Part shown: in pieces, positions 10,514 through 54,009 of the stretch
Layout: each line of letters starts with the position of its first letter
Position numbering within the stretch: the first letter of the stretch is position 1
Source: Ostreococcus lucimarinus
Lineage: Eukaryota
Reading direction: 5' to 3' (one strand)
Length of the DNA stretch: 64,000 nucleotides
Assembly: GCA_000092065.1 (NCBI GenBank)
Contig: CP000601.1
Program-made: the position numbers and the translations under genes
Notes under the pieces: model-generated
The model's database searches: none
What the model was told of the DNA's origin: nothing
Seen by the model: the letters and a program-made list of their open reading frames with translations, nothing else

Positions 10514-12391
10514 ATGGTTCGCAAGTGGCCGTCGAACGCGATTTTATGGTCTCGGCGACCGACCGCGCCTTTGCCGACGACGAATTACGGGCGCGCGACG
10601 TCACTGGACGTCCCCGCGGGCGACGGCGCGATGATGTCGCGCGCGTCCGTGGACGCGGTGCGCGGCGCGCGACTCGGCGCGCGACTCGGTGCGCTCGCGA
10701 TGCGGGCGAGAGCGACGCCGGGAGCGATCAAACACGCGCGGAGCGCGCGCGCGGTGGCGACGCGGGCGACGTACGGACGACCCGAGCGCATCGCGCGCGT
10801 GAAGGGAAACGACGGGGGGGCGTCGCGCGTGGGCGAGGCGTTGGAACTGCGAGGGTGGGCGCGATCGGTGCGGACGCAGAAGGGAATGGCGTTCATCGAC
10901 CTGAACGATGGGAGCGCGATCTCGGGGATGCAAGCGGTGGTGAACGAGGGAAGCGCGGCGTGGGACGCGCTCGACGCGGGCGGCGTCTCCACGGGGGCGG
11001 CGCTCAGGGTGAAGGGGAAACTCGTGGCGAGTCCGGGAGGGAAGCAAGCGGCGGAATTGGCGGTGGAGGAGATTGATGTCATCGGAACGGCGGATCCGGA
11101 GACGTATCCGCTGCAAAAGAAGCGACACACGCTGGAATATCTTCGAAGCATCGCGCACTTGCGACCTCGCACAAACACCATCGGCGCCGTGGCTCGCGTG
11201 CGCAATCAGTTGGCGTACGCGACGCACACGTTCTTTCAAGAGCATGGGTTTTTATACGCCAACACGCCGATCATCACCGCGTCGGATTGCGAAGGCGCTG
11301 GGGAACAGTTTCAAGTGACGACGCTGTTGAACGGCTTCGGCGCCGGCGAGTGGACGACGCCGGCCTCGGTCGTGGACGAGCAAGAAGCCATGGTGAAGGC
11401 ACAGGGTGACGCGGTGAAGGCCCTGAAGGAGGCGAAGAAAGCGGGAGACGCGACGAAAGAGCAAGTTGATGAGGCCGTGGCGAAGCTTTTAGATCTCAAG
11501 GCGAGCGTCGAGGCGCTGAAGAACAATCGCCCGTCGTCCGACTTGCCGAAGAATAAGGATGGTTCCATCGACTATTCTCAAGACTTCTTCGGCAAACCGT
11601 CTTATTTGACCGTGTCTGGGCAATTGAACGGTGAAATCATGGCTTGCGCGGTCAACGACATCTACACCTTCGGTCCGACGTTCCGCGCGGAGAATAGCAA
11701 CACGTCGCGCCACCTGGCTGAGTTTTGGATGGTAGAGCCCGAACTCGCGTTCGCGGATTTGAACGACGACATGGATTGCGCAGAAGCGTACTTGAAGTAT
11801 TGCCTGAACCACGTCCTCGAGCACTGCGACGAAGATCTTGAATTCTTCGAGAAGAACATCTCCAAAGACAACCTGAGAGAGCGACTTCGAAACGTCGCGT
11901 CGCAAGAGTTTGCGCGCATCACGTACACCGAAGCCGTCGAGCACGTGTTGAACGCGAAGAAGAAGTTTGAGTTCCCAATCGAATGGGGATCGGATCTTCA
12001 GAGCGAGCACGAGCGGTACATCTCAGAAGAAGTCTTCAAAGATCGCCCCGTGATCGTGCGCGATTATCCGAAAGATATCAAGGCGTTCTACATGCGTCTC
12101 AACGACGACAACAAAACCGTCGCCGCAATGGACGTCTTGGTGCCCCGCGTTGGTGAGTTGATGGGTGGTAGCCAAAGAGAAGAACGCCTTGATGTCTTGG
12201 AGCGCCGAATCGAAGAGGTTGGTTTGGAAAAGGAGTCGTACTGGTGGTACTTAGATTTGAGACGATACGGTTCGCAGCCGCACGCCGGTTTCGGCCTCGG
12301 TTTTGAACGCCTCGTTCAGTACGTCACAGGTGTGGAGAACATTCGTGACGCCATTCCTTTCCCCCGTTACCCGGGTAGCGCTGAGTTCTAG
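10514..12391 (+). CDS. Asparagine--tRNA ligase (class II), with an N-terminal organellar presequence and an inserted WHEP-like helix.
   Basis: Anticodon-binding block (ELRGWARSVRTQKGMAFIDLNDGS), class II motifs (YLTVSGQLNGEIMACAVNDIYTFGPTFRAENSNTSRHLAEFWMVEPELAFADL; GGSQREERLDVLERR; GFGLGFERLVQYVTG). The alternative start MMSRASV is at 10631. Confidence 0.85.
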   Translation: MVRKWPSNAILWSRRPTAPLPTTNYGRATSLDVPAGDGAMMSRASVDAVRGARLGARLGALAMRARATPGAIKHARSARAVATRATYGRPERIARVKGNDGGASRVGEALELRGWARSVRTQKGMAFIDLNDGSAISGMQAVVNEGSAAWDALDAGGVSTGAALRVKGKLVASPGGKQAAELAVEEIDVIGTADPETYPLQKKRHTLEYLRSIAHLRPRTNTIGAVARVRNQLAYATHTFFQEHGFLYANTPIITASDCEGAGEQFQVTTLLNGFGAGEWTTPASVVDEQEAMVKAQGDAVKALKEAKKAGDATKEQVDEAVAKLLDLKASVEALKNNRPSSDLPKNKDGSIDYSQDFFGKPSYLTVSGQLNGEIMACAVNDIYTFGPTFRAENSNTSRHLAEFWMVEPELAFADLNDDMDCAEAYLKYCLNHVLEHCDEDLEFFEKNISKDNLRERLRNVASQEFARITYTEAVEHVLNAKKKFEFPIEWGSDLQSEHERYISEEVFKDRPVIVRDYPKDIKAFYMRLNDDNKTVAAMDVLVPRVGELMGGSQREERLDVLERRIEEVGLEKESYWWYLDLRRYGSQPHAGFGLGFERLVQYVTGVENIRDAIPFPRYPGSAEF

Positions 12392-12454
12392 ATTTAGTCT
12401 AACGCGGCTGTAACTAAACTACTTAATCTACGCTAGTCTACGTCTACGGTGTCT

Positions 12455-13936
12455 CTACAGTAACGCCTTGCTAAGCGCTTTGAACGTGTAAAGTGATCCC
12501 GTCACGACCACGACAATCTCGTCGTCGCCGCGCGAGAGCGCTCCTTTCAAGGCCTTCTCGAAATCATCTTCTGAGGTGGGAGTCGGACCATGCGCTGGGC
12601 CGATATAAGCCTTCGCGAGCGTCTTCGCGGGCGTCGTTCGAGACGATGCGCCGGCGACTTGCATTTGAGTGCACACCACACCGACGGGATCCGCCCTGTA
12701 CAGCTCTTCAATAAATCCTCCGTGATCCTTGTCGTCCGCCATCGCTACGACGAACAAAAGTTTTCGGTCGGGATAAACCTCACGAATCGTGTTCACGAGA
12801 ACTCGAGCGGAACCTTTGGTGTGCGCGCCATCAGCAATCATCGTGGGCCCTCCACTCGTCTCAAATACTTCAAAGTTCCCCGGACTGCGCGTCGTTTCCA
12901 AGCCTCTTCGAATATCTTCCAGAGATGCGTCGATTTTGTTTTGAGCGCGAAGCCACCACAGAACACGAAGCGCAAGACTTATGTTCTCGCGCTGGTGCGG
13001 CCCAGCGAGAGGAATTCGAACGTTCGAAAGGGTGGACGCTATTTTACCATCCACTTTGATGTCGATGTCGACGTCCTGCGAAGCGATCGAGTCTTCCACG
13101 TGATACCGCACGAGACGCGTGTCTACGCATACGTTATCGATAACGTTCGCCCCACGCGCGCGGAGCGCAGTTTTCAACATTGTTGTTATTCGTTCGTCCA
13201 CGTTTGGGGCACAAAACACCGGACGACCTTTATGCGCGATGCCAGCTTTTGCGTCTACGATTGTCTCAATCGAACCGCCGAGCGCTTCGAGGTGTTCCTC
13301 ACCTATGTGTGTGATCACCGCTGCTTCTAGATTTTCTGCCGCGAGTACGTTTGTGGCGTCTCGACTTCCCCCGAGACCGACTTCCACGAGCGCTAAATCG
13401 ACGTTTGCCTTTTTAAAGTATGCAAAGGCGAGCGCCGTGAGGACTTCAAAGTACGACAACTGACCGCCCTCACGCTGTTGTGCAGACTTTATCTCTCGCT
13501 CTAAATCGCGCAGTACGTCGAGAACTTGTGCAGACGCATCACTTTCGCTACTCCGAATCCTTTCCGCCACGGTATACACGTGAGGGCTCTTATACGTGCC
13601 GATTCGTAATCCAGCGGCGCGCAGGACGCTCGCGAGCACGGAAACCGTCGTTCCTTTCCCCTTCGTTCCCGACACGTGTATCGTGTTATACGCCCTGTGT
13701 GGATCGTCAAAGTCTCGCAACAATCTATGCATGCGTCCGAGATCGAATCCGTCCGTCGTATCCGTCCCAGCGTTTCGCGGGACGCCGCTCTTTTCGTGAT
13801 TGACGAAGTCCCGCAACGCTTCGTCCACCGTCGCGAATGCGGTCGATGTGCGGGCTCGTGCGCGCGCTCTGTGCGCGAACGAGAACAAATTCTCACAGAG
13901 CTCGCGGTGTTGGCGCGAACACGCCGAGCGTCGCAT
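12455..13936 (-). CDS. FPGS: Folylpolyglutamate synthase / dihydrofolate synthase (Mur ligase family).
   Basis: The P-loop HVSGTKGKGTT, then GTYKSPHV, THIGEEHLEALGGSIETIVDAKAGIAHKGRPVF and the C-terminal Mur ligase domain. The ATG is at 13936. Confidence 0.85.
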   Translation of the reverse strand: MRRSACSRQHRELCENLFSFAHRARARARTSTAFATVDEALRDFVNHEKSGVPRNAGTDTTDGFDLGRMHRLLRDFDDPHRAYNTIHVSGTKGKGTTVSVLASVLRAAGLRIGTYKSPHVYTVAERIRSSESDASAQVLDVLRDLEREIKSAQQREGGQLSYFEVLTALAFAYFKKANVDLALVEVGLGGSRDATNVLAAENLEAAVITHIGEEHLEALGGSIETIVDAKAGIAHKGRPVFCAPNVDERITTMLKTALRARGANVIDNVCVDTRLVRYHVEDSIASQDVDIDIKVDGKIASTLSNVRIPLAGPHQRENISLALRVLWWLRAQNKIDASLEDIRRGLETTRSPGNFEVFETSGGPTMIADGAHTKGSARVLVNTIREVYPDRKLLFVVAMADDKDHGGFIEELYRADPVGVVCTQMQVAGASSRTTPAKTLAKAYIGPAHGPTPTSEDDFEKALKGALSRGDDEIVVVVTGSLYTFKALSKALL

Positions 13937-14162
13937 GGTAGCGACGCACCGAGACGCGCGTGCGAAGCGCGGTCTGCGGTCACTCGTCGGGCGAGCAGAA
14001 GAGCGGCTGCGAAGTCGGCGAGCTCTCGTTGGCTCCTCGCACCGCTCGAATCGTGCGAAGAATGATGAGTACTAATGAGAAAGGTGGTAATAAAAAGTCC
14101 TAAACTCGACCGCGTCGCTCGCCCGCCGGCACGACGACGACGTGGTCTTCAAAACGCATTCG

Positions 14163-15134
14163 CTAGCGAGGAGGCGCTGGGGAGTTTTCCAAAATCACTC
14201 CGCCGACCTCGACGCGAGAACCACGCCCTGTGATTATCGTGTTTCTAACATTGTCTGCTATTCTGGGATCCAGTCCTGCACCATCCGCGCACGTCACTCG
14301 ACTCGATCGCGTCTCTTCCGATCCAGCCGTTCTGAAATCTCCCCAATACTCCTTGTCCCCCGGTCCGTCCGCGGAGCCAAAGTTGACGTACACCGGACTG
14401 TCAAACAACTCTGGATACGTCGCCAGTAGCTCTCTCTCGGCGTAACGCAACGTATCTAACACCAACGGTAATTTTTGACGAAACACGACCGAACGAAGGG
14501 GCGCCGCCCATCGTATCCACCAAGCCTCCTTCGCGCTCACCTGACAAAACACGTGCAAGCCGTCCTCGCGCCACTCCGCGAGCACCTCGTCTCTGAGCAA
14601 TCTCGTGTACCATATCGACGTTTGATCGTCGTTGAACGCGTCGCCTACCGTGAGCGTCAAATTCCTCGTCACATCGTTGTGCGTCAGCGTGTAACGCCGC
14701 TGCAATAAAGACTCCGGTTCCACCCGCGTCGAGCTCGCGTCGAACGCCACCGACACTCTGTCCGGGTCAAACTTCAAGGCGTCGAAAACCGCGTTCGTCG
14801 TCGTCTGCGCGCGCGCGATCGCCGTCGGTCAGTGTCACGATTCCATCGAGTCGCACTCGCGCCTTTCTCGCGCGTCGCTCGCGGTTTTAGACGTCGCCGT
14901 CCCCCCCCATCGCGCGAAAACCGCGCCTCGGACGTCCCGTCCCGTCCCGATCGACGCGCGTCGCGCGCGCGTCGCGTCGCGTCGGTCGCCGCGCACCTTC
15001 CCCCGTCCGCGCCCCTTCGCCGGCCGTCCTCGCGCGCCGGGTCCCGGTCGCCGTCCGCTCGCGTCGCGCGTCGACGTCGACGTCGACGCCCCGCTCGCGC
15101 GCGCGCGCGTCGCGAGCGCCCTATCCAGCGCCAT
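14163..15134 (-). CDS. SGR: STAY-GREEN (SGR) magnesium dechelatase. The conserved core is 14163..14757. A probable transit-peptide exon lies at 14857..15134 (or ends at 14839), with an intron of about 99 nt.
   Basis: The core RRYTLTHNDVTRNLTLTVG ... RLLRDEVLAEWRE ... LHVFCQVS ... KLPLVLDTLRYAERELLATYPELFDSPVYVNFGS is co-linear with Arabidopsis SGR1 (RTYTLTHSDITAKLTLAIS ... RLYRDEVVAEWKK ... ELPVVLKAFVHGD). The core ORF has no in-frame ATG and lacks a presequence. An ATG-initiated, same-frame ORF (14835..15134, MALDRALATRARASGASTSTS...) lies just upstream and is separated only by two TGA codons. A GTGCGA donor and a CAG acceptor in matching phase would join the two ORFs. Confidence 0.7.
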
Positions 15135-15372
15135 GGCGTCGACGGCGCGCGCGTCGCGTTCGCGCGTCGACGACGCGCGCGCGTCGACGACGCTCGCGAC
15201 TCGTCGACGACGACGTCGACGACGACGACGCGCGTCGCTGTGCCGGGCGTCGTCGCGTCGTCGGATCGTCGTCTCGTCGTCGTCCCGCGGCGTCCCGCGC
15301 GTCCGCCTCGAGCGCGAGCGCGAGCGGTCGCGAGCGGTCGCGATCGGACGATGCGACCGATGGTGCGATTGA

Positions 15373-17238
15373 ATGGATACACACGGACCACACCGATCCC
15401 ATCGACGAGTCTCGACTCGAGAACGAGTCCCTCGACGCCCGACGCGCCCCGACCGACGTCACGCGATCCGATCCGCGCGCGGCGTCGTCGCGTCGGCGTC
15501 GTCGCGTCGGCTCGTCACAGCGCGCGTCCGGGACAGCGAGCGCTCGAACGCCCGAACGCGCGAAGCGCCCGAGACGGATCCGAACGCCACGAATCCGCGC
15601 CGAGCGATCGAGCCCGCCATGCGCACCGTCGCGCGCGCGTTCGCGACGACGACGACGTCGAGCGCGAGGTGTGATTATCGCCGTCGAGCGACGACGACGC
15701 GCGCGACGACGAGCGCGGTGCGCGCGGACGCGCGGCGCGCGCGATCGGGGAGGTATGCGATCGTTCCGCGATCGATCGAGGGCGAAGGGAACGCCGCGGT
15801 CGTCGAAAGAAGCGTCGAGGGCGAGGAGGGGGAGAAGATGATGTCCCTGGAGGCGAGACGCGAGGCGCTGAGGTTGCCGCGCCCGGACGTCGCGGCGCCG
15901 GGGATGGAGGATCCGTGGAACGATGAGAAGTGGCAAAAGGTGAAGTGGACGGTGTTTCGAGACGTGGCGTACGACCTCGGACCGTTCTTTGAGAAGCATC
16001 CGGGCGGGAACTGGTTGTTGAACCTCGCCATCGGTCGCGACTGCACGGCGCTCATGGAATCCTATCACTTGCGACCAGAGGTGGCGACGGCGCGCTTCAG
16101 GATGTTACCCAAGCTCGAGGGGTTCCCGGTCGACGCCGTGGCGAAGTCACCGAGACCGAACGATTCGCCGCTGTACAACAACATCCGCAATCGCGTTCGC
16201 GAGGAACTTTTCCCGGAAGAAGGGAAGAACAAACACAGAATGGGTGGCGACCACGCGACGATAACGATTTTGTCTTTCGCCGCGTTTGCGTACGGTGTGT
16301 ACGCCACCATCCCGGGCTTTCTCTCGGGTTGCCTCCTTGGCTTAGCTGGTGCGTGGATCGGGCTCACGATTCAGCATTGCGCCAATCACGGGGCGATGTC
16401 ACCGTCGCCCGCCGTCAACGGCGTCCTCGGTTTGACGAACGATCTCATCGGCGGCTCGTCTTTGATGTGGCGATACCACCACCAGGTGAGCCACCACATT
16501 CACTGCAACGACAATGCTATGGATCAAGACGTGTACACCGCCATGCCTCTCTTGCGTTTCGACGCTCGTCGTCCCAAGGCGTGGTACCACCGCTTCCAGC
16601 ACTGGTACATGTTCTTGGCCTTTCCGTTGTTGCAGGTGGCGTTCCAAGTCGGCGACATCGTCGGTTTGTTCACTCGCGATACCGAAGGCGCAAAGCTCCA
16701 CGGGGCGACCACTTGGGAACTTGCCACCGTAGTTATCGGCAAGTTTGTGCACTTCGGTTTGTTGGCTGCACCTTTGATGAGCCACGCGGCTTCCGCCGTC
16801 GTCGCCGGCATCGTCGGTTTCATGGCGTGCCAAGGAGTCGTCCTCGCGTGTACGTTCGCGGTGAGTCACAACGTGCCCGAGGCCAAACTCCCTGAAGATA
16901 CCGGTGGAGAGGCGTGGGAAAGAGATTGGGGCGTGCAGCAGTTGGTGACTAGCGCTGACTGGGGTGGAAAGATTGGAAACTTTTTCACCGGCGGTCTGAA
17001 CTTGCAAGTCGAGCATCACCTGTTCCCGGCGATTTGCTTTGTGCACTACCCCGCGATCGCGAAAATTGTCGCGGAAGAAGCGGCGAAGATGGGCATTCCT
17101 TACTCGTCATACAGAACACTTCCCGGCATTTTCGTCGCGTTCTGGAAATTCGTCAGAGACATGGGCACGGCGGAGCAAATCGACGACGTTTTACTTCCGA
17201 AGTTCGCGAACCCGCAACTTTCGCCAGCCATCAATTAG
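15373..17238 (+). CDS. Cytochrome b5-fused front-end fatty acid desaturase with a long N-terminal organellar-type extension.
   Basis: The cyt b5 motif EKHPGGNWL, then the His boxes HCANHGA, HHQVSHHIHCN and QVEHHLFP (Q in the third box is diagnostic of front-end delta-4/5/6/8 desaturases). The first ATG is at 15373 and a transit-peptide-like alternative (MRTVARAFATTTTSS) is at 15619. Confidence 0.85.
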   Translation: MDTHGPHRSHRRVSTRERVPRRPTRPDRRHAIRSARGVVASASSRRLVTARVRDSERSNARTREAPETDPNATNPRRAIEPAMRTVARAFATTTTSSARCDYRRRATTTRATTSAVRADARRARSGRYAIVPRSIEGEGNAAVVERSVEGEEGEKMMSLEARREALRLPRPDVAAPGMEDPWNDEKWQKVKWTVFRDVAYDLGPFFEKHPGGNWLLNLAIGRDCTALMESYHLRPEVATARFRMLPKLEGFPVDAVAKSPRPNDSPLYNNIRNRVREELFPEEGKNKHRMGGDHATITILSFAAFAYGVYATIPGFLSGCLLGLAGAWIGLTIQHCANHGAMSPSPAVNGVLGLTNDLIGGSSLMWRYHHQVSHHIHCNDNAMDQDVYTAMPLLRFDARRPKAWYHRFQHWYMFLAFPLLQVAFQVGDIVGLFTRDTEGAKLHGATTWELATVVIGKFVHFGLLAAPLMSHAASAVVAGIVGFMACQGVVLACTFAVSHNVPEAKLPEDTGGEAWERDWGVQQLVTSADWGGKIGNFFTGGLNLQVEHHLFPAICFVHYPAIAKIVAEEAAKMGIPYSSYRTLPGIFVAFWKFVRDMGTAEQIDDVLLPKFANPQLSPAIN

Positions 17239-17357
17239 AATTATAACTTACCTTACGCGCTTGTTGACTTCAAACGAGCAAACGACAGAAATACGATTAT
17301 TGTGATATACTTACACCTCCGCCTCATCATTGTTTTGATCTAATTCTAACTTACAAA

Positions 17358-18392
17358 CTACACACGAATTCTCAAGTTGAGCAACTCTCGCTCGGCGCTC
17401 GTTCGATTAAACGTCACACTTTGTCCGATACTCACCGGCTCCGGGGGTGCACCACCCTCTTCGTATGCCTCGTAACTTCTTAAAGTCCCATCAGGACCGG
17501 CATACGCGCCGTCGACGTAAGAATGGCAGTTGTGCAAACCGGCGTCTGAAAGCAGCTGCTTCGCCCACGCCGCGGAACTACTGCTTCGGCTATGCAACAA
17601 GATGAGATTATCCGACGTCGGCTTGTGAAATCGGAACATCCGCACCCACTCTTCATCGTTCATATGCACTGCTTTGGGCAGATGATCCACCGGGACGTGC
17701 GTTGACCCCTCGAGTGTTCCGTAAAGCGCGCGCTCGTCAAACCTTCGAATGTCCAAAATCACTAGTCCCAGCGCATTGCCGTCGTCTCTCACCGTTTCCA
17801 GGAGAAGTAACACCGCGTCGAAGCTCAGAGCTCGATCTTTCCCTGATGAAAACACAGCGGGTTCGTCGAAGTGTGCTAGAGGTACCGCCGCGGCGAGTCC
17901 GCCGTCCACGATGGAGCACCGCGTGAATCCCAGGCTCGTCGCGAGCGCCGCGGCGTGCGACGAGCTATGCCCGTGCGTGCTCACAAAAATCATCGTCGTC
18001 CTTAAACTCGGCACGGGAATGTTTGGAAATCTCTTCTTCCACAGTGTGTTACGATTGCGCAACAAGTTCGCCAACTCTTCCGGTAAGATGTGCGTCACGG
18101 CGAGTCTGTCGCTCAGCTTCGTCACCGCCGTCGCCCCCCCGTCCTCGCTCTTCGGTCTGACGTCTAATAGCAAGTATTTCACCGGTTTCGTTTGAACCAA
18201 CATCCAAAACGCTTTCGCACTCAGCACCCCGTACGTCTGTTTGTTCAATTTCACCGTCGGTTGCGAGCTCGACGTCGTTCGCTGTCTCGCTCGATCTCTG
18301 TGCTTGGCGCTTCGCAAGACGCGCACGGACCAGGCGATGAGAGACAGACACACGGCGGTGGTTAACGAACCGCCGACGTTGGTGACGTGCAT
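17358..18392 (-). CDS. Tandem rhodanese-like domain protein with an N-terminal membrane anchor. The catalytic Cys is absent from both domains.
   Basis: Two rhodanese-type folds (LLLDVRPKSE...VSTHGHSS and ILDIRRFDE...ILLHSRSSSSAAW). A Ser sits where the active-site Cys is expected. The start MHVTNVGGSLTTAVCLSLIAW is at 18392. Confidence 0.6.
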   Translation of the reverse strand: MHVTNVGGSLTTAVCLSLIAWSVRVLRSAKHRDRARQRTTSSSQPTVKLNKQTYGVLSAKAFWMLVQTKPVKYLLLDVRPKSEDGGATAVTKLSDRLAVTHILPEELANLLRNRNTLWKKRFPNIPVPSLRTTMIFVSTHGHSSSHAAALATSLGFTRCSIVDGGLAAAVPLAHFDEPAVFSSGKDRALSFDAVLLLLETVRDDGNALGLVILDIRRFDERALYGTLEGSTHVPVDHLPKAVHMNDEEWVRMFRFHKPTSDNLILLHSRSSSSAAWAKQLLSDAGLHNCHSYVDGAYAGPDGTLRSYEAYEEGGAPPEPVSIGQSVTFNRTSAERELLNLRIRV

Positions 18393-19096
18393 GATATTCG
18401 TCCGCACGCGCGCCGCGCGCGTCCGTCTGCGGGCGCACCGCCGATCACGCGCGCGGTCGACGTGGACGCGCGTCGAGTCGATTTCGAACGAACGAACGCC
18501 AAAACGAACGCGCGTCGAGCGATTTCGTGGGCGTCTCGAGGGCGCGCAACCCTACGAAATCGTCGTCGAAAAATCACGCACTCAAAGACAATTTAGAACT
18601 ATCTGCAAACACGGTACGCGCGCGATAAACGCCGCGTCGGCCCCCGCGCGCCGCGCGCGCGAACGAAGCGACGTTCGTGGCGACCGTTGAAGCGCCGAAC
18701 CAGAGCGCGAGACCGCGCGCGCGTCACAGCGCGCGGCGAAATTTGCGAAAGCGTCCACACGAACATGCTCTCGGTTTCGACGTCGTCGCGATCGCTCGCG
18801 AGCGCACCGACGGCGCGCCGAGGATGGCGTGGGCGTCGCGGCGGGAGCAGGTTAGAAACGGTTCGACGGGCGCAAATCGGCGTCGATCTCGTCGACGCGG
18901 CGAGAAACGGGTTGGAGACGTTCGTTCAAAGGGTACGTTATCGACAAGCGCGAGATTCGGACCTAAAATCGATCGGTGCGCGCCGACAGAGCGATGTCAA
19001 GAGTGGTTTTGTTGCCTCTCGCCGCACGCTCTCGGTGAAGCAAACGAGCGCAAACGCGACGAAGATTGAGGCTGACCGATTTATTTTCATTCGTAG

Positions 19097-27857: not shown

Positions 27858-29621
27858 ATGGCTGATCAAGTCATCGTCATCGGCGGTGGTCTCGCGGGCC
27901 TGTCCGCGGCGCACACCGTCATCGAACACGGCGCGCGCGTCGTGTTGCTCGACAAATGTTCCTTCCTGGGCGGGAACAGCACGAAGGCGACGAGTGGGAT
28001 TAACGGAGCGTTGACGAAGACGCAGGCGCGGTTGAACATTCCCGACAGCGCTGATAAGTTTGAAGATGATATCATCAAGGGCGCGGCGGGCGTCGGGCAC
28101 ACCGAAGCGCCGGCACACACGGTGCCGCTCGCAAAGGTGCTGGCGCAAGGAAGCGGTTCGAGCGTGGATTGGTTGATGGAAAAGTTTAACCTTGACTTGT
28201 CCCTCGTCGCGCAGCTCGGTGGGCACTCGTTCCCGCGAACGCATCGAGGCAAAGAGCGGTTCCCAGGGTTCACGATCACGTACGCCCTGATGGAGGGGTT
28301 GGAGAAGATTATGGAGGAGACGAATGGGGAAATTGCGCGAATCGTGACCAAAGCCGAGGCAAAGCGGTTGCTAAAGGACGGAAGTGGTACCGTGATCGGG
28401 GTGGAATACGAGAAGGGTGGCGCTTTACATCAAGAGTACGGTCCAGTCGTCATCGCTACCGGTGGTTTCGGTGCGGATTACCAGTCAGACTCGTTGTTGA
28501 AAAAGTACCGACCCGACTTGCAGGCGCTGCCGACGACGAACGGTGACCACTGCACGGGGGATGGAATCAAGATGGCCTTGGCCGTCGGAGCGGATACGAT
28601 CGATATGGAGTCTGTGCAAGTGCATCCTACCGGATTAGTCAACCCTTCAGAGCCAGATTCCAAGGTGAAGTTCTTAGCCGCCGAGGCGCTTCGAGGCGTC
28701 GGAGGCATCCTCCTGGACGCAGACGGGAACAGATTCGCCGATGAGCTCGGTCGACGAGACTACGTCAGTGGTGAAATGAACAGAAACAAAGGGCCTTTCC
28801 GTTTGATTCTGAACGGCAAGGCTTCAAAGGAGATCGAATGGCACTGCAAGCATTACGTCGGGCGAGGCATCATGAAGCGTCACGATACGGGTGCCGAAGT
28901 TGCAAAAGAAATGGGCATCAGTCCACAAAAGCTCGCCGACACCTTTGCCAAGTACAACGAAGCCGCTCGAACGAAGAAGTGTCCGTTCGGTAAAAAGTTT
29001 TTCACCAACGCTCCGTTCGAAATGAATGATTTCTTTCACTCCGCCATCGTGTGCACCGTCGTGCACTACACCATGGGTGGACTCGCCATCAACACTGATT
29101 CGCAAATCGTCGGGTCGTCAGGACCGATTCCTGGTTTATACGGTGCGGGCGAGGTCGTTGGGGGTATTCACGGCCGTAACCGACTCGGTGGTAACTCTCT
29201 GTTGGATTGCGTCGTCTTTGGTCGCGTCGCGGGTGCCTCAGTTTCTCGACACCTCATGGCGACGGCTATCAAGGCGCTTAGATCTGGTCAATCCGTCGCT
29301 CTTAATCGCGTCGCTAACTTGAACGACAAGATCAACCCATCCATGAGCACGGCGTCCGCCGCGCCAGTGTCTAGCGGTGGCGGTGCTCGCGCTATCACCA
29401 TGGATGAAATCGCGAAGCACAACTCCGAGGGCGACCTCTGGGTCATCATCGAGGGCGCCGTTTACGATCTCACGACTTTCTTGCCCGATCATCCAGGTGG
29501 AAAGAAAGCGATCATGCTCTTCGCCGGAAAGGATGCCACTGAAGAGTTCAACATGCTCCACCCTCCGAACGTCTTGAAGAAATATCTCTCTCCAGACGCG
29601 AAGATTGGAACCGTCGCGTGA
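27858..29621 (+). CDS. Soluble FAD-dependent fumarate reductase (OSM1 / flavocytochrome-type) fused to a C-terminal cytochrome b5 domain.
   Basis: The FAD-binding motif VIVIGGGLAGLSAAHTVIEHGARVVLLDKCSFLGGNSTKATSGINGA and the FRD/SDH flavoprotein core. The C-terminal 80 aa (DLWVIIEGAVYDLTTFLPDHPGGKKAIMLFAGKDATEEFNMLHPPNV) is a canonical cyt b5 heme-binding domain. The ATG (MADQVIVIGGG) is at 27858. Confidence 0.85.
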   Translation: MADQVIVIGGGLAGLSAAHTVIEHGARVVLLDKCSFLGGNSTKATSGINGALTKTQARLNIPDSADKFEDDIIKGAAGVGHTEAPAHTVPLAKVLAQGSGSSVDWLMEKFNLDLSLVAQLGGHSFPRTHRGKERFPGFTITYALMEGLEKIMEETNGEIARIVTKAEAKRLLKDGSGTVIGVEYEKGGALHQEYGPVVIATGGFGADYQSDSLLKKYRPDLQALPTTNGDHCTGDGIKMALAVGADTIDMESVQVHPTGLVNPSEPDSKVKFLAAEALRGVGGILLDADGNRFADELGRRDYVSGEMNRNKGPFRLILNGKASKEIEWHCKHYVGRGIMKRHDTGAEVAKEMGISPQKLADTFAKYNEAARTKKCPFGKKFFTNAPFEMNDFFHSAIVCTVVHYTMGGLAINTDSQIVGSSGPIPGLYGAGEVVGGIHGRNRLGGNSLLDCVVFGRVAGASVSRHLMATAIKALRSGQSVALNRVANLNDKINPSMSTASAAPVSSGGGARAITMDEIAKHNSEGDLWVIIEGAVYDLTTFLPDHPGGKKAIMLFAGKDATEEFNMLHPPNVLKKYLSPDAKIGTVA

Positions 29622-53210: not shown

Positions 53211-54009
53211 GGTTACTGTTGATGAGGTACATTGCCGTCACCCCAAGAAGGCCACCGACAGCAATCGAGCCCATCGCGTCGTACATCGGACTCCCCGTCA
53301 CTTCGCACGCGATGAGCGCCGTACCCGCGATGCCACAACCCAACACCGCGGCAGCATCTTCTGCGAGCACGGCCACGCTGGTGGGATCTTTACCAGATTT
53401 GATAAATTCCCTCAGCGTCATTCCTTGCGCCTTGGCGTTGTCGCGCAACGACTCGTACGCCACCTTTAACGAAAATCCTTCCAACAACGCCGACGCGCCC
53501 AACACCGCGATCCCAATACGTATGTTTTCAGACGGCATCGGGTCCATCAACCCGTGCATCCCGTGCATCACGCTAAACCCAGCACCGAGAAAGAAAATTC
53601 CCACCGCGGAAATCAACGAATACACGAACCAACAAGTGCGAGTGAGGGCTTCGACGCGAGAGGCGATGGTTTTGGACTCTCGCGAACGCTCGGCGGCTTG
53701 GCGCCCGGCGGCGCGCGCGAACGTTTCGTAATCTTGTTCGGCTTGAGAGATGAACTTACGACTCGCGGCCTCGGACTCGACTCTGAACTCGTTCACGAGT
53801 GACTCGATGCGCTCGCGCGCGATTCGTCGATTGCGTTCGGCGAGAGATTGCATCATTTGCTGGAATCCAACCATGTCGTAACGCGTCGAACGTTGACGCA
53901 CCGTCTCGCGCGTGTAGTACGCTCTCGCCGCGTCGTTCCACGCCCCCGACGTTCGCCCGGGCACGAGAACCACGGACCAGAGTAAAACCTTCGTAATCAC
54001 CGATCGCAC
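53206..54009 (-). CDS. Membrane protein homologous to the TM3-TM6 core of SLC30A9/ZnT9-type cation diffusion facilitators. N-terminal coiled-coil. The TM1-2 region and the C-terminal cytoplasmic domain are not found, and the 3-prime end is unresolved.
   Basis: SLISAVGIFFLGAGFSVMHGMHGLMDP and LRDNAKAQGMTLREFIKSGKDPTSVAVLAEDAAAVLGCGIAGTALIACEVTGSPMYDAMGSIAVGGLLGVTAMYLINSN parallel the human ZnT9 blocks SLISGVGIFMMGAGLSWYHGVMGLLHP and DPSTNVILLEDTAAVLGV..., as far as I recall them. After ...YLINSNL the track ORF runs through the 86-bp repeat into R-rich junk that overlaps TPI exon 1. Confidence 0.5.

Follow-up and report, generated by a model that had tools for sequence, protein, structure and literature searches.

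A probable plastid Δ4 front-end desaturase gene in Ostreococcus lucimarinus and the correction of its start codon

The stretch of Ostreococcus lucimarinus DNA analyzed here (64,000 nucleotides of contig CP000601.1, hereafter the window) carries a gene for a front-end desaturase in which an N-terminal cytochrome b5 domain is fused to a membrane desaturase. Judging from its relatives, its motifs and its N-terminus, the gene is most probably the O. lucimarinus representative of a family of green-algal plastid desaturases, the acyl-lipid Δ4 (‘7-3’) type of CrΔ4FAD and CzFAD3A; plastid location, lipid substrate and Δ4 regiospecificity are what we infer for it. The true start of the gene is the ATG at 15619, giving a protein of 539 amino acids (aa), and the starts proposed by the public annotation and by the first-pass annotation, which a model had made from the letters alone, are both misplaced. 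The family is a known one and the O. tauri ortholog has already been flagged in the literature; the analysis adds the corrected gene model and a defined candidate for the plastidial Δ4 step in Mamiellophyceae. The enzyme probably makes 16:4n-3, which is among the major acyl chains that thylakoid galactolipids carry in a picoeukaryote ranking with the most abundant in the ocean. The practical value of the finding is limited, and the identity of the enzyme would not surprise a specialist.

The open reading frame (ORF) described by the first-pass annotation, 621 aa at 15373..17238 (+), is present, and it is a real desaturase ORF and not a chance one, because it had 385 homologs among database proteins at E≤1e-10, with a top match at 100% identity. 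Over residues 157-621 the ORF matches, at 100% identity, the 465-aa O. lucimarinus CCE9901 entry XP_001422856.1 / ABP01215.1 (‘predicted protein’), and the window is therefore part of the genome of that strain. Homologs aligned with the protein from end to end, which shows the coding sequence to be intronless. The class of enzyme had been recognized correctly from the letters: the N-terminal b5 domain has its HPGG motif, there are three histidine (His) boxes, and the first His of the third box is replaced by Gln (QXXHH), a trait of front-end desaturases. Residues H127, P128, G130 and H150 of the b5 domain were invariant among 32 aligned sequences, and the domain agrees with solved cytochromes b5 in both sequence and fold. 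With this 32-sequence alignment as input, AlphaFold2 gave a confident core (predicted template modeling score 0.78; 290 residues with a predicted local distance difference test score, pLDDT, ≥90) including two helical hairpins, 211-230/234-256 and 365-387/391-414, with pLDDT mostly >85, and these regions coincide with the peaks of Kyte-Doolittle hydropathy.

We know of no solved structure of a front-end desaturase. A sequence search of the PDB with the protein returned b5 domains only, and a Foldseek search of the PDB yielded nothing beyond b5 domains, AlkB and one subunit with a desaturase fold from the Chlamydomonas Ycf2-FtsHi complex. The best fold matches of the desaturase domain were 8xqw chain M and 8xks chain K (E ~2e-5, template modeling score ~0.5, 14-16% identity), which are subunits of the Chlamydomonas Ycf2/Orf2971-FtsHi chloroplast import motor, with AlkB (8sbb) next.

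Assignment of the protein to a desaturase class was based on its placement among named orthologs, on comparison of its His boxes with a published consensus, and on comparison of accessions and lengths. The best 120 matches were all algal, with no land plant among them, and the named close homologs showed 52-68% identity over ~80% of the query. Their names include ‘fatty acid desaturase (delta-4 desaturase)’, ‘acyl-lipid (7-3)-desaturase’ and ‘fatty acyl delta4 desaturase’, with delta-4-named sequences from Haematococcus, Monoraphidium minutum and Dunaliella salina (KAF5831187) among them. Named matches came from Mamiellophyceae, Pyramimonadales, Chloropicon, Nephroselmis, Pedinophyceae, Ulva, Trebouxiophyceae, Chlorophyceae and one green-plastid euglenid. 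A HMMER scan of 1.84 billion cluster representatives (50% identity) recovered a single representative of the orthogroup, from Pleodorina (606 bits, 61% identity), and the next full-length cluster followed at 368 bits and 45% identity. WRYHHQVSHH or near variants of it recur in the closest representative clusters, and the HX3HH pattern is kept throughout the delta-4-like relatives. Full-text searching of the literature with the His-box motifs brought up nothing of relevance.

In a neighbor-joining tree (63 sequences, 431 columns, 100 bootstraps), Ostreococcus and Mamiellophyceae were each recovered at 100% and Mamiellophyceae with Pyramimonadales at 85%. These groups sat within a series of Chloropicon, Nephroselmis, Pedinophyceae, Ulva, Trebouxiophyceae and Chlorophyceae branches that roughly followed the species tree. 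A separate chlorophyte paralog clade (P0104, P0096, P0112, P0114; 100%) fell outside; handles of this form denote retrieved proteins. The fatty acid 16:4Δ4,7,10,13 (16:4n-3) is a signature of Chlorophyta (PMC8018280), and the taxon range of the orthogroup, with no land plant in the best 120 matches, coincides with that of this fatty acid. A homology search with the Volvox africanus ortholog, combined with a cluster look-up, recovered entries from Pleodorina, Edaphochlamys, Dunaliella and Tetradesmus and none from C. reinhardtii, and a search with P0244 led to a Cafeteria-like/unknown protist group, with no Ostreococcus paralog among the matches. For ten further representatives, cluster look-ups yielded hardly any names.

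Three candidate start codons were compared: 15373 (the maximal ORF, as in the first-pass annotation), 15619 (MRTVARAF...) and 15841 (RefSeq, MSLEAR...). The locus was aligned at the DNA level with its counterparts in eight environmental contigs, of which L001-L003 and L006-L008 are of the same species and L004 and L005 are of a sister lineage whose protein is 96% identical to that of the window. Against the sister lineage, positions 15373-15618 diverged by 33.5% and carried indels of 12, 1, 7, 3, 3, 8 and 2 nucleotides (nt), and intergenic DNA farther upstream diverged by 37% with a similar indel pattern. Divergence was 11% over 15619-15858, where all indels are of 3 nt, and 0.7% from 15859 onward, where there are none. 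Upstream of 15619 substitutions were spread evenly across the three codon positions, and a 1-nt indel at ~15591 is polymorphic within the species (L001-3, L008). Given the frame-breaking indels and a divergence at the level of intergenic DNA, 15373-15618 is noncoding. The ATG at 15619 is kept in the sister clade (as MRVVARAF), conservation begins ~25 nt upstream of it, and the most frequent gene call (P0121, from 285 independent contigs) starts at the equivalent Met.

The upstream extension begins just after an in-frame TGA at 15370. On both strands, 14774..15674 is a GC-rich (CGTCG-type), stop-poor divergent promoter region in which spurious ORFs of 99-315 aa overlap one another in several frames. 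The 82-codon extension to 15373 is an artifact of this composition, and the region is a trap for annotation based on ORFs. It is extremely improbable that the full 621-aa ORF is translated from 15373, with a presequence of ~165 aa, since, even though the frame is open and some automated callers give models of 620-635 aa (P0001, P0131, P0136), the long models read the upstream stretch in frames that differ between strains through 1-nt indels (P0131 against the window; P0136), the divergence and indels there match intergenic DNA, and the commonest call starts downstream. One of these models, P0136 (635 aa, from one ENA contig of the sister lineage), reads the region equivalent to 15600-15720 in another frame before returning to the main one, which would imply two compensating indels or an assembly error inside the presequence; the four other members of its cluster have the normal MRVVARAF start.

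The RefSeq start is the second ATG of an ATGATG (15835-15840; 15841 by protein numbering). In 8/8 environmental loci this hexamer is replaced by ATT (KISLE versus KMMSLE), so the RefSeq start is wrong and its Met is specific to the cultured strain. The 465-aa RefSeq model is without 74 N-terminal residues, the putative transit peptide included. Expression from the RefSeq model would thus yield a protein without its presequence, and a construct built on the long ORF would carry 82 residues that do not belong to the protein. The features of the gene and of its upstream neighbor are collected in Table 1.

Table 1. Features of the desaturase locus and its upstream neighbor. Pfam residue coordinates refer to the 621-aa ORF; His, heme-ligand and helix positions, here and in the text, refer to the 539-aa protein starting at 15619. 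UTR, untranslated region.
Feature	Position	Strand	Evidence
In-frame ORF extension, noncoding (5' UTR / divergent promoter region), 82 codons	15373..15618	+	Frame-breaking indels, 33.5% divergence
True coding sequence, cytochrome b5-fused front-end desaturase, 539 aa and stop, no intron	15619..17238	+	Conserved ATG, full-length homolog alignment
Basic, hydroxylated presequence, aa 1-52, putative chloroplast transit peptide	15619..15774	+	Composition, pLDDT<50
Acidic, poorly conserved linker, aa 53-82, contains ATGATG	15775..15864	+	9 Glu in 30 residues
Start of conserved mature protein, ALRLPRPDVAAPGMEDPWNDEKWQKV, green-algal clade motif ahead of b5 fold	15865..15942	+	Alignment
Cytochrome b5 heme-binding domain	15943..16080	+	Pfam PF00173 Cyt-b5, ORF aa 191-236, E=9e-9
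HPGG heme motif, aa 127-130	15997-16008	+	Translation
Membrane fatty-acid desaturase domain	16312..17112	+	Pfam PF00487 FA_desaturase, ORF aa 314-580, E=1e-33
His box 1, HCANH, aa 253-257	16375..16389	+	Translation; H253, N256, H257 invariant
His box 2, HHQVSHH (HX3HH), aa 287-293, within WRYHHQVSHHIHCN	16477..16497	+	Translation; H287, H288, H292, H293 invariant
His box 3, QVEHH, aa 463-467	17005..17019	+	Translation; Q463, H466, H467 invariant
Staygreen (Mg-dechelatase family), divergent upstream neighbor	14163..14777	-	PF12638, E=3e-37
Separate ORF from ATG 15134, MALDRALATRARASGASTSTSTR..., transit-peptide-like, other frame, just upstream of Staygreen	14835..15134	-	

With the start placed at 15619, the conserved core of the protein, which opens at ALRLPRPD...DPWNDEKW, is still preceded by ~82 nonconserved residues. 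This lies at the lower end of the 80-150 aa that the first-pass annotation had allowed for a presequence, although the codons that it had counted between 15373 and 15618 are not part of the gene; it had also named a start at 15619, without a functional presequence, as part of an outcome that would speak against it, and of this outcome the start was borne out. The first 52 residues, MRTVARAFATTTTSSARCDYRRRATTTRATTSAVRADARRARSGRYAIVPRS, comprise 13 R, 10 T, 11 A, 5 S and only 2 acidic residues, with a net charge of +11 (S+T 29%, A 21%, R 25%), and residues 1-75 were disordered in the AlphaFold2 model (pLDDT<50). The DNA of the presequence evolves fast yet stays in frame, with the 11% divergence given above against 0.7% in the core. 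The pattern PRPD...DPW.D.KW is conserved across Mamiellophyceae and its DPW/KW part throughout the green clade, and a non-alignable extension of 50-130 aa precedes this motif in every ortholog examined (other Ostreococcus lineages, Bathycoccus, Micromonas-like, Pyramimonas, Cymbomonas, Dunaliella, Haematococcus, Edaphochlamys, Volvox and Pleodorina). In Δ4-like proteins of more remote kinship, by comparison, only 7-20 aa stand ahead of the b5 fold.

This behavior is that expected of a chloroplast transit peptide and suggests plastid targeting, so that the earlier proposal of a possibly plastid-targeted presequence appears to hold in substance. All but two of the O. tauri desaturases were predicted by PredAlgo to have a transit peptide (bioRxiv 10.1101/2020.03.10.986216), and the presequence agrees with these predictions, with the plastid location of CrΔ4FAD and with the chloroplast prediction for CzFAD3A.

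Taken as a plastid Δ4 desaturase, the enzyme would work as follows. The R/T/A/S-rich presequence would direct import into the chloroplast and then be removed, and the mature enzyme would be anchored in a plastid membrane via its two helical hairpins. Its own b5 domain, with heme ligands H127 and H150, would hand electrons on to a di-iron center for which the three His boxes supply the ligands. With O2, two hydrogens would then be removed three carbons to the carboxyl side of the Δ7 double bond in galactolipid-esterified 16:3Δ7,10,13, and the predicted product would be 16:4Δ4,7,10,13.

Several points weigh against this assignment. The deep nodes of the neighbor-joining tree are weak (29-55% bootstrap), and the link to CrΔ4FAD runs through annotation names, Volvocales orthologs and the literature rather than through direct alignment. 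Likewise, we infer correspondence to ‘D4p’ rather than ‘4ER’, the two O. tauri Δ4 genes, by routes other than sequence comparison. CzFAD3A and CzFAD3B show that members of the family can have Δ6 activity on C18 substrates (PMC8447527). Six Ostreococcus desaturases are counted as characterized in a preprint of February 2026, with no plastidial Δ4 enzyme among them, and the Mamiellophyceae members of the clade are uncharacterized. Targeting was judged from composition and comparison, and a mitochondrial or dual location may apply instead.

The first-pass annotation had proposed a possible delta-6-type enzyme while cautioning that regiospecificity cannot be read from the sequence alone. The caution was well placed, as CzFAD3A combines Δ4 activity with traces of Δ6 activity and its paralog CzFAD3B is a Δ6 enzyme, but the proposal itself was not upheld: the His boxes are unlike the Ot05/Ot10 consensus, and the homologs form the green-algal delta-4 / (7-3) clade. 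A Δ6 desaturase that is plastid-targeted and uses C18 substrates (18:2/18:3 to 18:3n-6/18:4n-3) is an unlikely reading, even if it is the strongest of the alternatives. CzFAD3B converts 49-75% of 18:2 and 18:3 by Δ6 desaturation (PMC8447527), and Δ4 desaturation of C16 and Δ6 desaturation of C18 share the methyl-end position n-12. Moreover, Bathycoccus, reported to be without homologs of Ot05/Ot10 (PMC8018280 names only pΔ6-Des2), keeps the window gene (P0156). A name also speaks for it, since P0046 (Chlamydomonas sp. ICE-L), a member of the Δ4 orthogroup that is 68% identical to the Volvox ortholog, is called ‘Chloroplast delta-6 fatty acid desaturase’ in UniRef; this name is probably homology-based and may mislead annotation transfer.

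However, two plastidic Δ6 enzymes have already been demonstrated in Ostreococcus, namely Ot05 and Ot10, and their His-box consensus, xHDYxHGRx / WWSxKHNxHH / QLEHHFLP (bioRxiv 10.1101/2020.03.10.986216), is quite different from that of the window protein, with an HX2HH second box against QHCANHGA / WRYHHQVSHH (HX3HH) / LQVEHHLFP here. The window protein falls together with sequences of the CzFAD3A kind and with Volvocales sequences bearing Δ4 names, and not with the paralog clade of P0104 and P0096, CzFAD3B is predicted to reside in the endoplasmic reticulum (ER) and is without a long presequence, and C. reinhardtii has an ortholog but no Δ6 fatty acids (PMC8447527). A weak Δ6 side activity of the window enzyme may nevertheless exist.

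Less probable again is an ER Δ4 desaturase of the docosahexaenoic acid (DHA) pathway (22:5n-3 to 22:6n-3) whose N-terminal extension is no targeting signal. The HX3HH / WRYHHQVSHH-type box is common to the wider Δ4-like family, JGI names on the matches use the KEGG term of DHA-forming Δ4 desaturases, and Ostreococcus does make 22:6n-3 (PMC8018280). Yet the characterized O. lucimarinus ER Δ4 desaturase is listed under another record, XM_001415706.1, of 459 aa, an ER-assigned enzyme for C22 substrates with 10% conversion of 22:5 (Ahmann et al., 2011), and for O. tauri ‘4ER’ and ‘D4p’ are given as two distinct genes. The long basic, hydroxylated presequence found in all green-clade orthologs is absent from the distant Δ4-like representatives, and the orthogroup occurs in algae for which only C16 and C18 fatty acids are described, such as Chlamydomonas and Chromochloris.

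It is very improbable that the enzyme is also the plastidial Δ3 desaturase that would convert galactolipid-bound 18:4Δ6,9,12,15 to 18:5Δ3,6,9,12,15 (octadecapentaenoic acid) in Ostreococcus. The idea is conceivable because Δ4 and Δ3 reactions both insert a double bond three carbons to the carboxyl side of the first one, and no Δ3 desaturase has been identified in any alga (PMC8018280; PMC11418110; no later report was found). Against it, Bathycoccus is without 18:5 although it has the ortholog, 18:5 occurs in some early-diverging green classes only although core chlorophytes carry the ortholog too, and the plastidial Δ4-Des transcript of O. tauri was unresponsive to cold whereas its 18:5 content was responsive (PMC8018280).

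The desaturase gene lies in a conserved neighborhood. In four Ostreococcus lineages (window 10514..18407, loci L001-L010) the order of five genes is conserved: a class II aminoacyl-tRNA synthetase with a WHEP domain (+), a FolC-like Mur ligase (-), Staygreen (-), the desaturase (+) and a rhodanese-domain protein (-). A lineage that is 90% identical (P0003/P0144) has the same neighborhood. The Staygreen ORF lacks an ATG: its frame is open from 14828, and a TTG is the earliest codon at which it could start. Together with the separate ORF that begins at ATG 15134 just upstream, this points to a 5' exon or to a start of an unusual kind, and no phase-compatible GT-AG intron joining the two ORFs was found on inspection by eye.

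Elsewhere in the window, the only other b5 domain is in a 587-aa protein encoded at 27858..29621 (+), a fumarate-reductase-type flavoprotein (FAD_binding_2, E=1e-70) with a C-terminal cytochrome b5 domain (E=7e-25). A tblastn match at 53425-53580, considered as a possible second desaturase, belongs to a His-rich cation-efflux protein and is no desaturase. Among distant relatives of the desaturase, P0236, P0245, P0388 and P0402 (648-752 aa) combine three domains in a single natural polypeptide, namely an ELO (GNS1/SUR4) elongase, a cytochrome b5 and a Δ4-like desaturase, with three of the four confirmed by Pfam; one literature search found no report of natural elongase-desaturase fusions.

Among known systems, the closest in kind is CrΔ4FAD (CrFAD3, AFJ74144.1) of C. 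reinhardtii, reportedly described by Zauner and colleagues in 2012 as a plastid cytochrome b5-fused Δ4 desaturase of monogalactosyldiacylglycerol (MGDG). It is located in the chloroplast and performs Δ4 desaturation of MGDG-bound 16:3Δ7,10,13 (PMC8447527). The window protein shares with it the fusion of a desaturase to a b5 domain at the N-terminus and the possession of a presequence, and probably belongs with it to the green-algal orthogroup; the expected product, 16:4Δ4,7,10,13, would be the same. Volvocales relatives of CrΔ4FAD are ~58-61% identical to the window protein, the similarity to CrΔ4FAD itself being gauged through these relatives only, and the Ostreococcus presequence differs in that it is not alignable with chlorophycean ones.

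CzFAD3A (C. zofingiensis, MT323113) is described as a close homolog of CrΔ4FAD; in Synechococcus it showed strong Δ4 activity on C16, producing 16:1Δ4 to ~12% of fatty acids, and had trace Δ6 activity on 18:3, yielding 18:4Δ6 (PMC8447527). Like the window protein it has a b5 domain and is predicted to be chloroplast-located; it differs by its weak Δ6 activity, and Chromochloris has the second, Δ6-active paralog. One retrieved protein (P0067), inside the main clade of the neighbor-joining tree, ends in ...AAAAQLARL, matching the reverse (C-terminal) cloning primer of CzFAD3A, and shares 61% identity with the window protein across 76% of the query. CzFAD3B, sought among the retrieved proteins by its primer-derived termini, was not identified.

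The ER Δ4 desaturase of O. lucimarinus shares species and front-end type with the window enzyme, and would share its predicted Δ4 regiospecificity, and differs from XP_001422856.1 in record and length, the two having been compared by accession and length only. Ot05 and Ot10 (CEF97803.1, CEF99426.1) are of the same class as plastid-located front-end desaturases with a transit peptide and a needed b5 domain, but their homologs are found in Chromista and are absent from the rest of the green lineage, the opposite of the orthogroup of the window protein. They are two of seven front-end desaturases of O. tauri, which also include the ER Δ4 desaturase CEF96519.1 and a putative plastidial Δ4 desaturase, ‘D4p, Ot13.2’ (CEG00114.1), and the tree of front-end desaturases published by Degraeve-Guilbault et al. 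places D4p beside [Cr]4p (bioRxiv 10.1101/2020.03.10.986216). A transcript of the O. tauri plastidial Δ4-Des has been measured (PMC8018280). The window gene is probably the ortholog of D4p / Ot13.2, with which a one-to-one relationship would be expected, and D4p is itself a putative enzyme.

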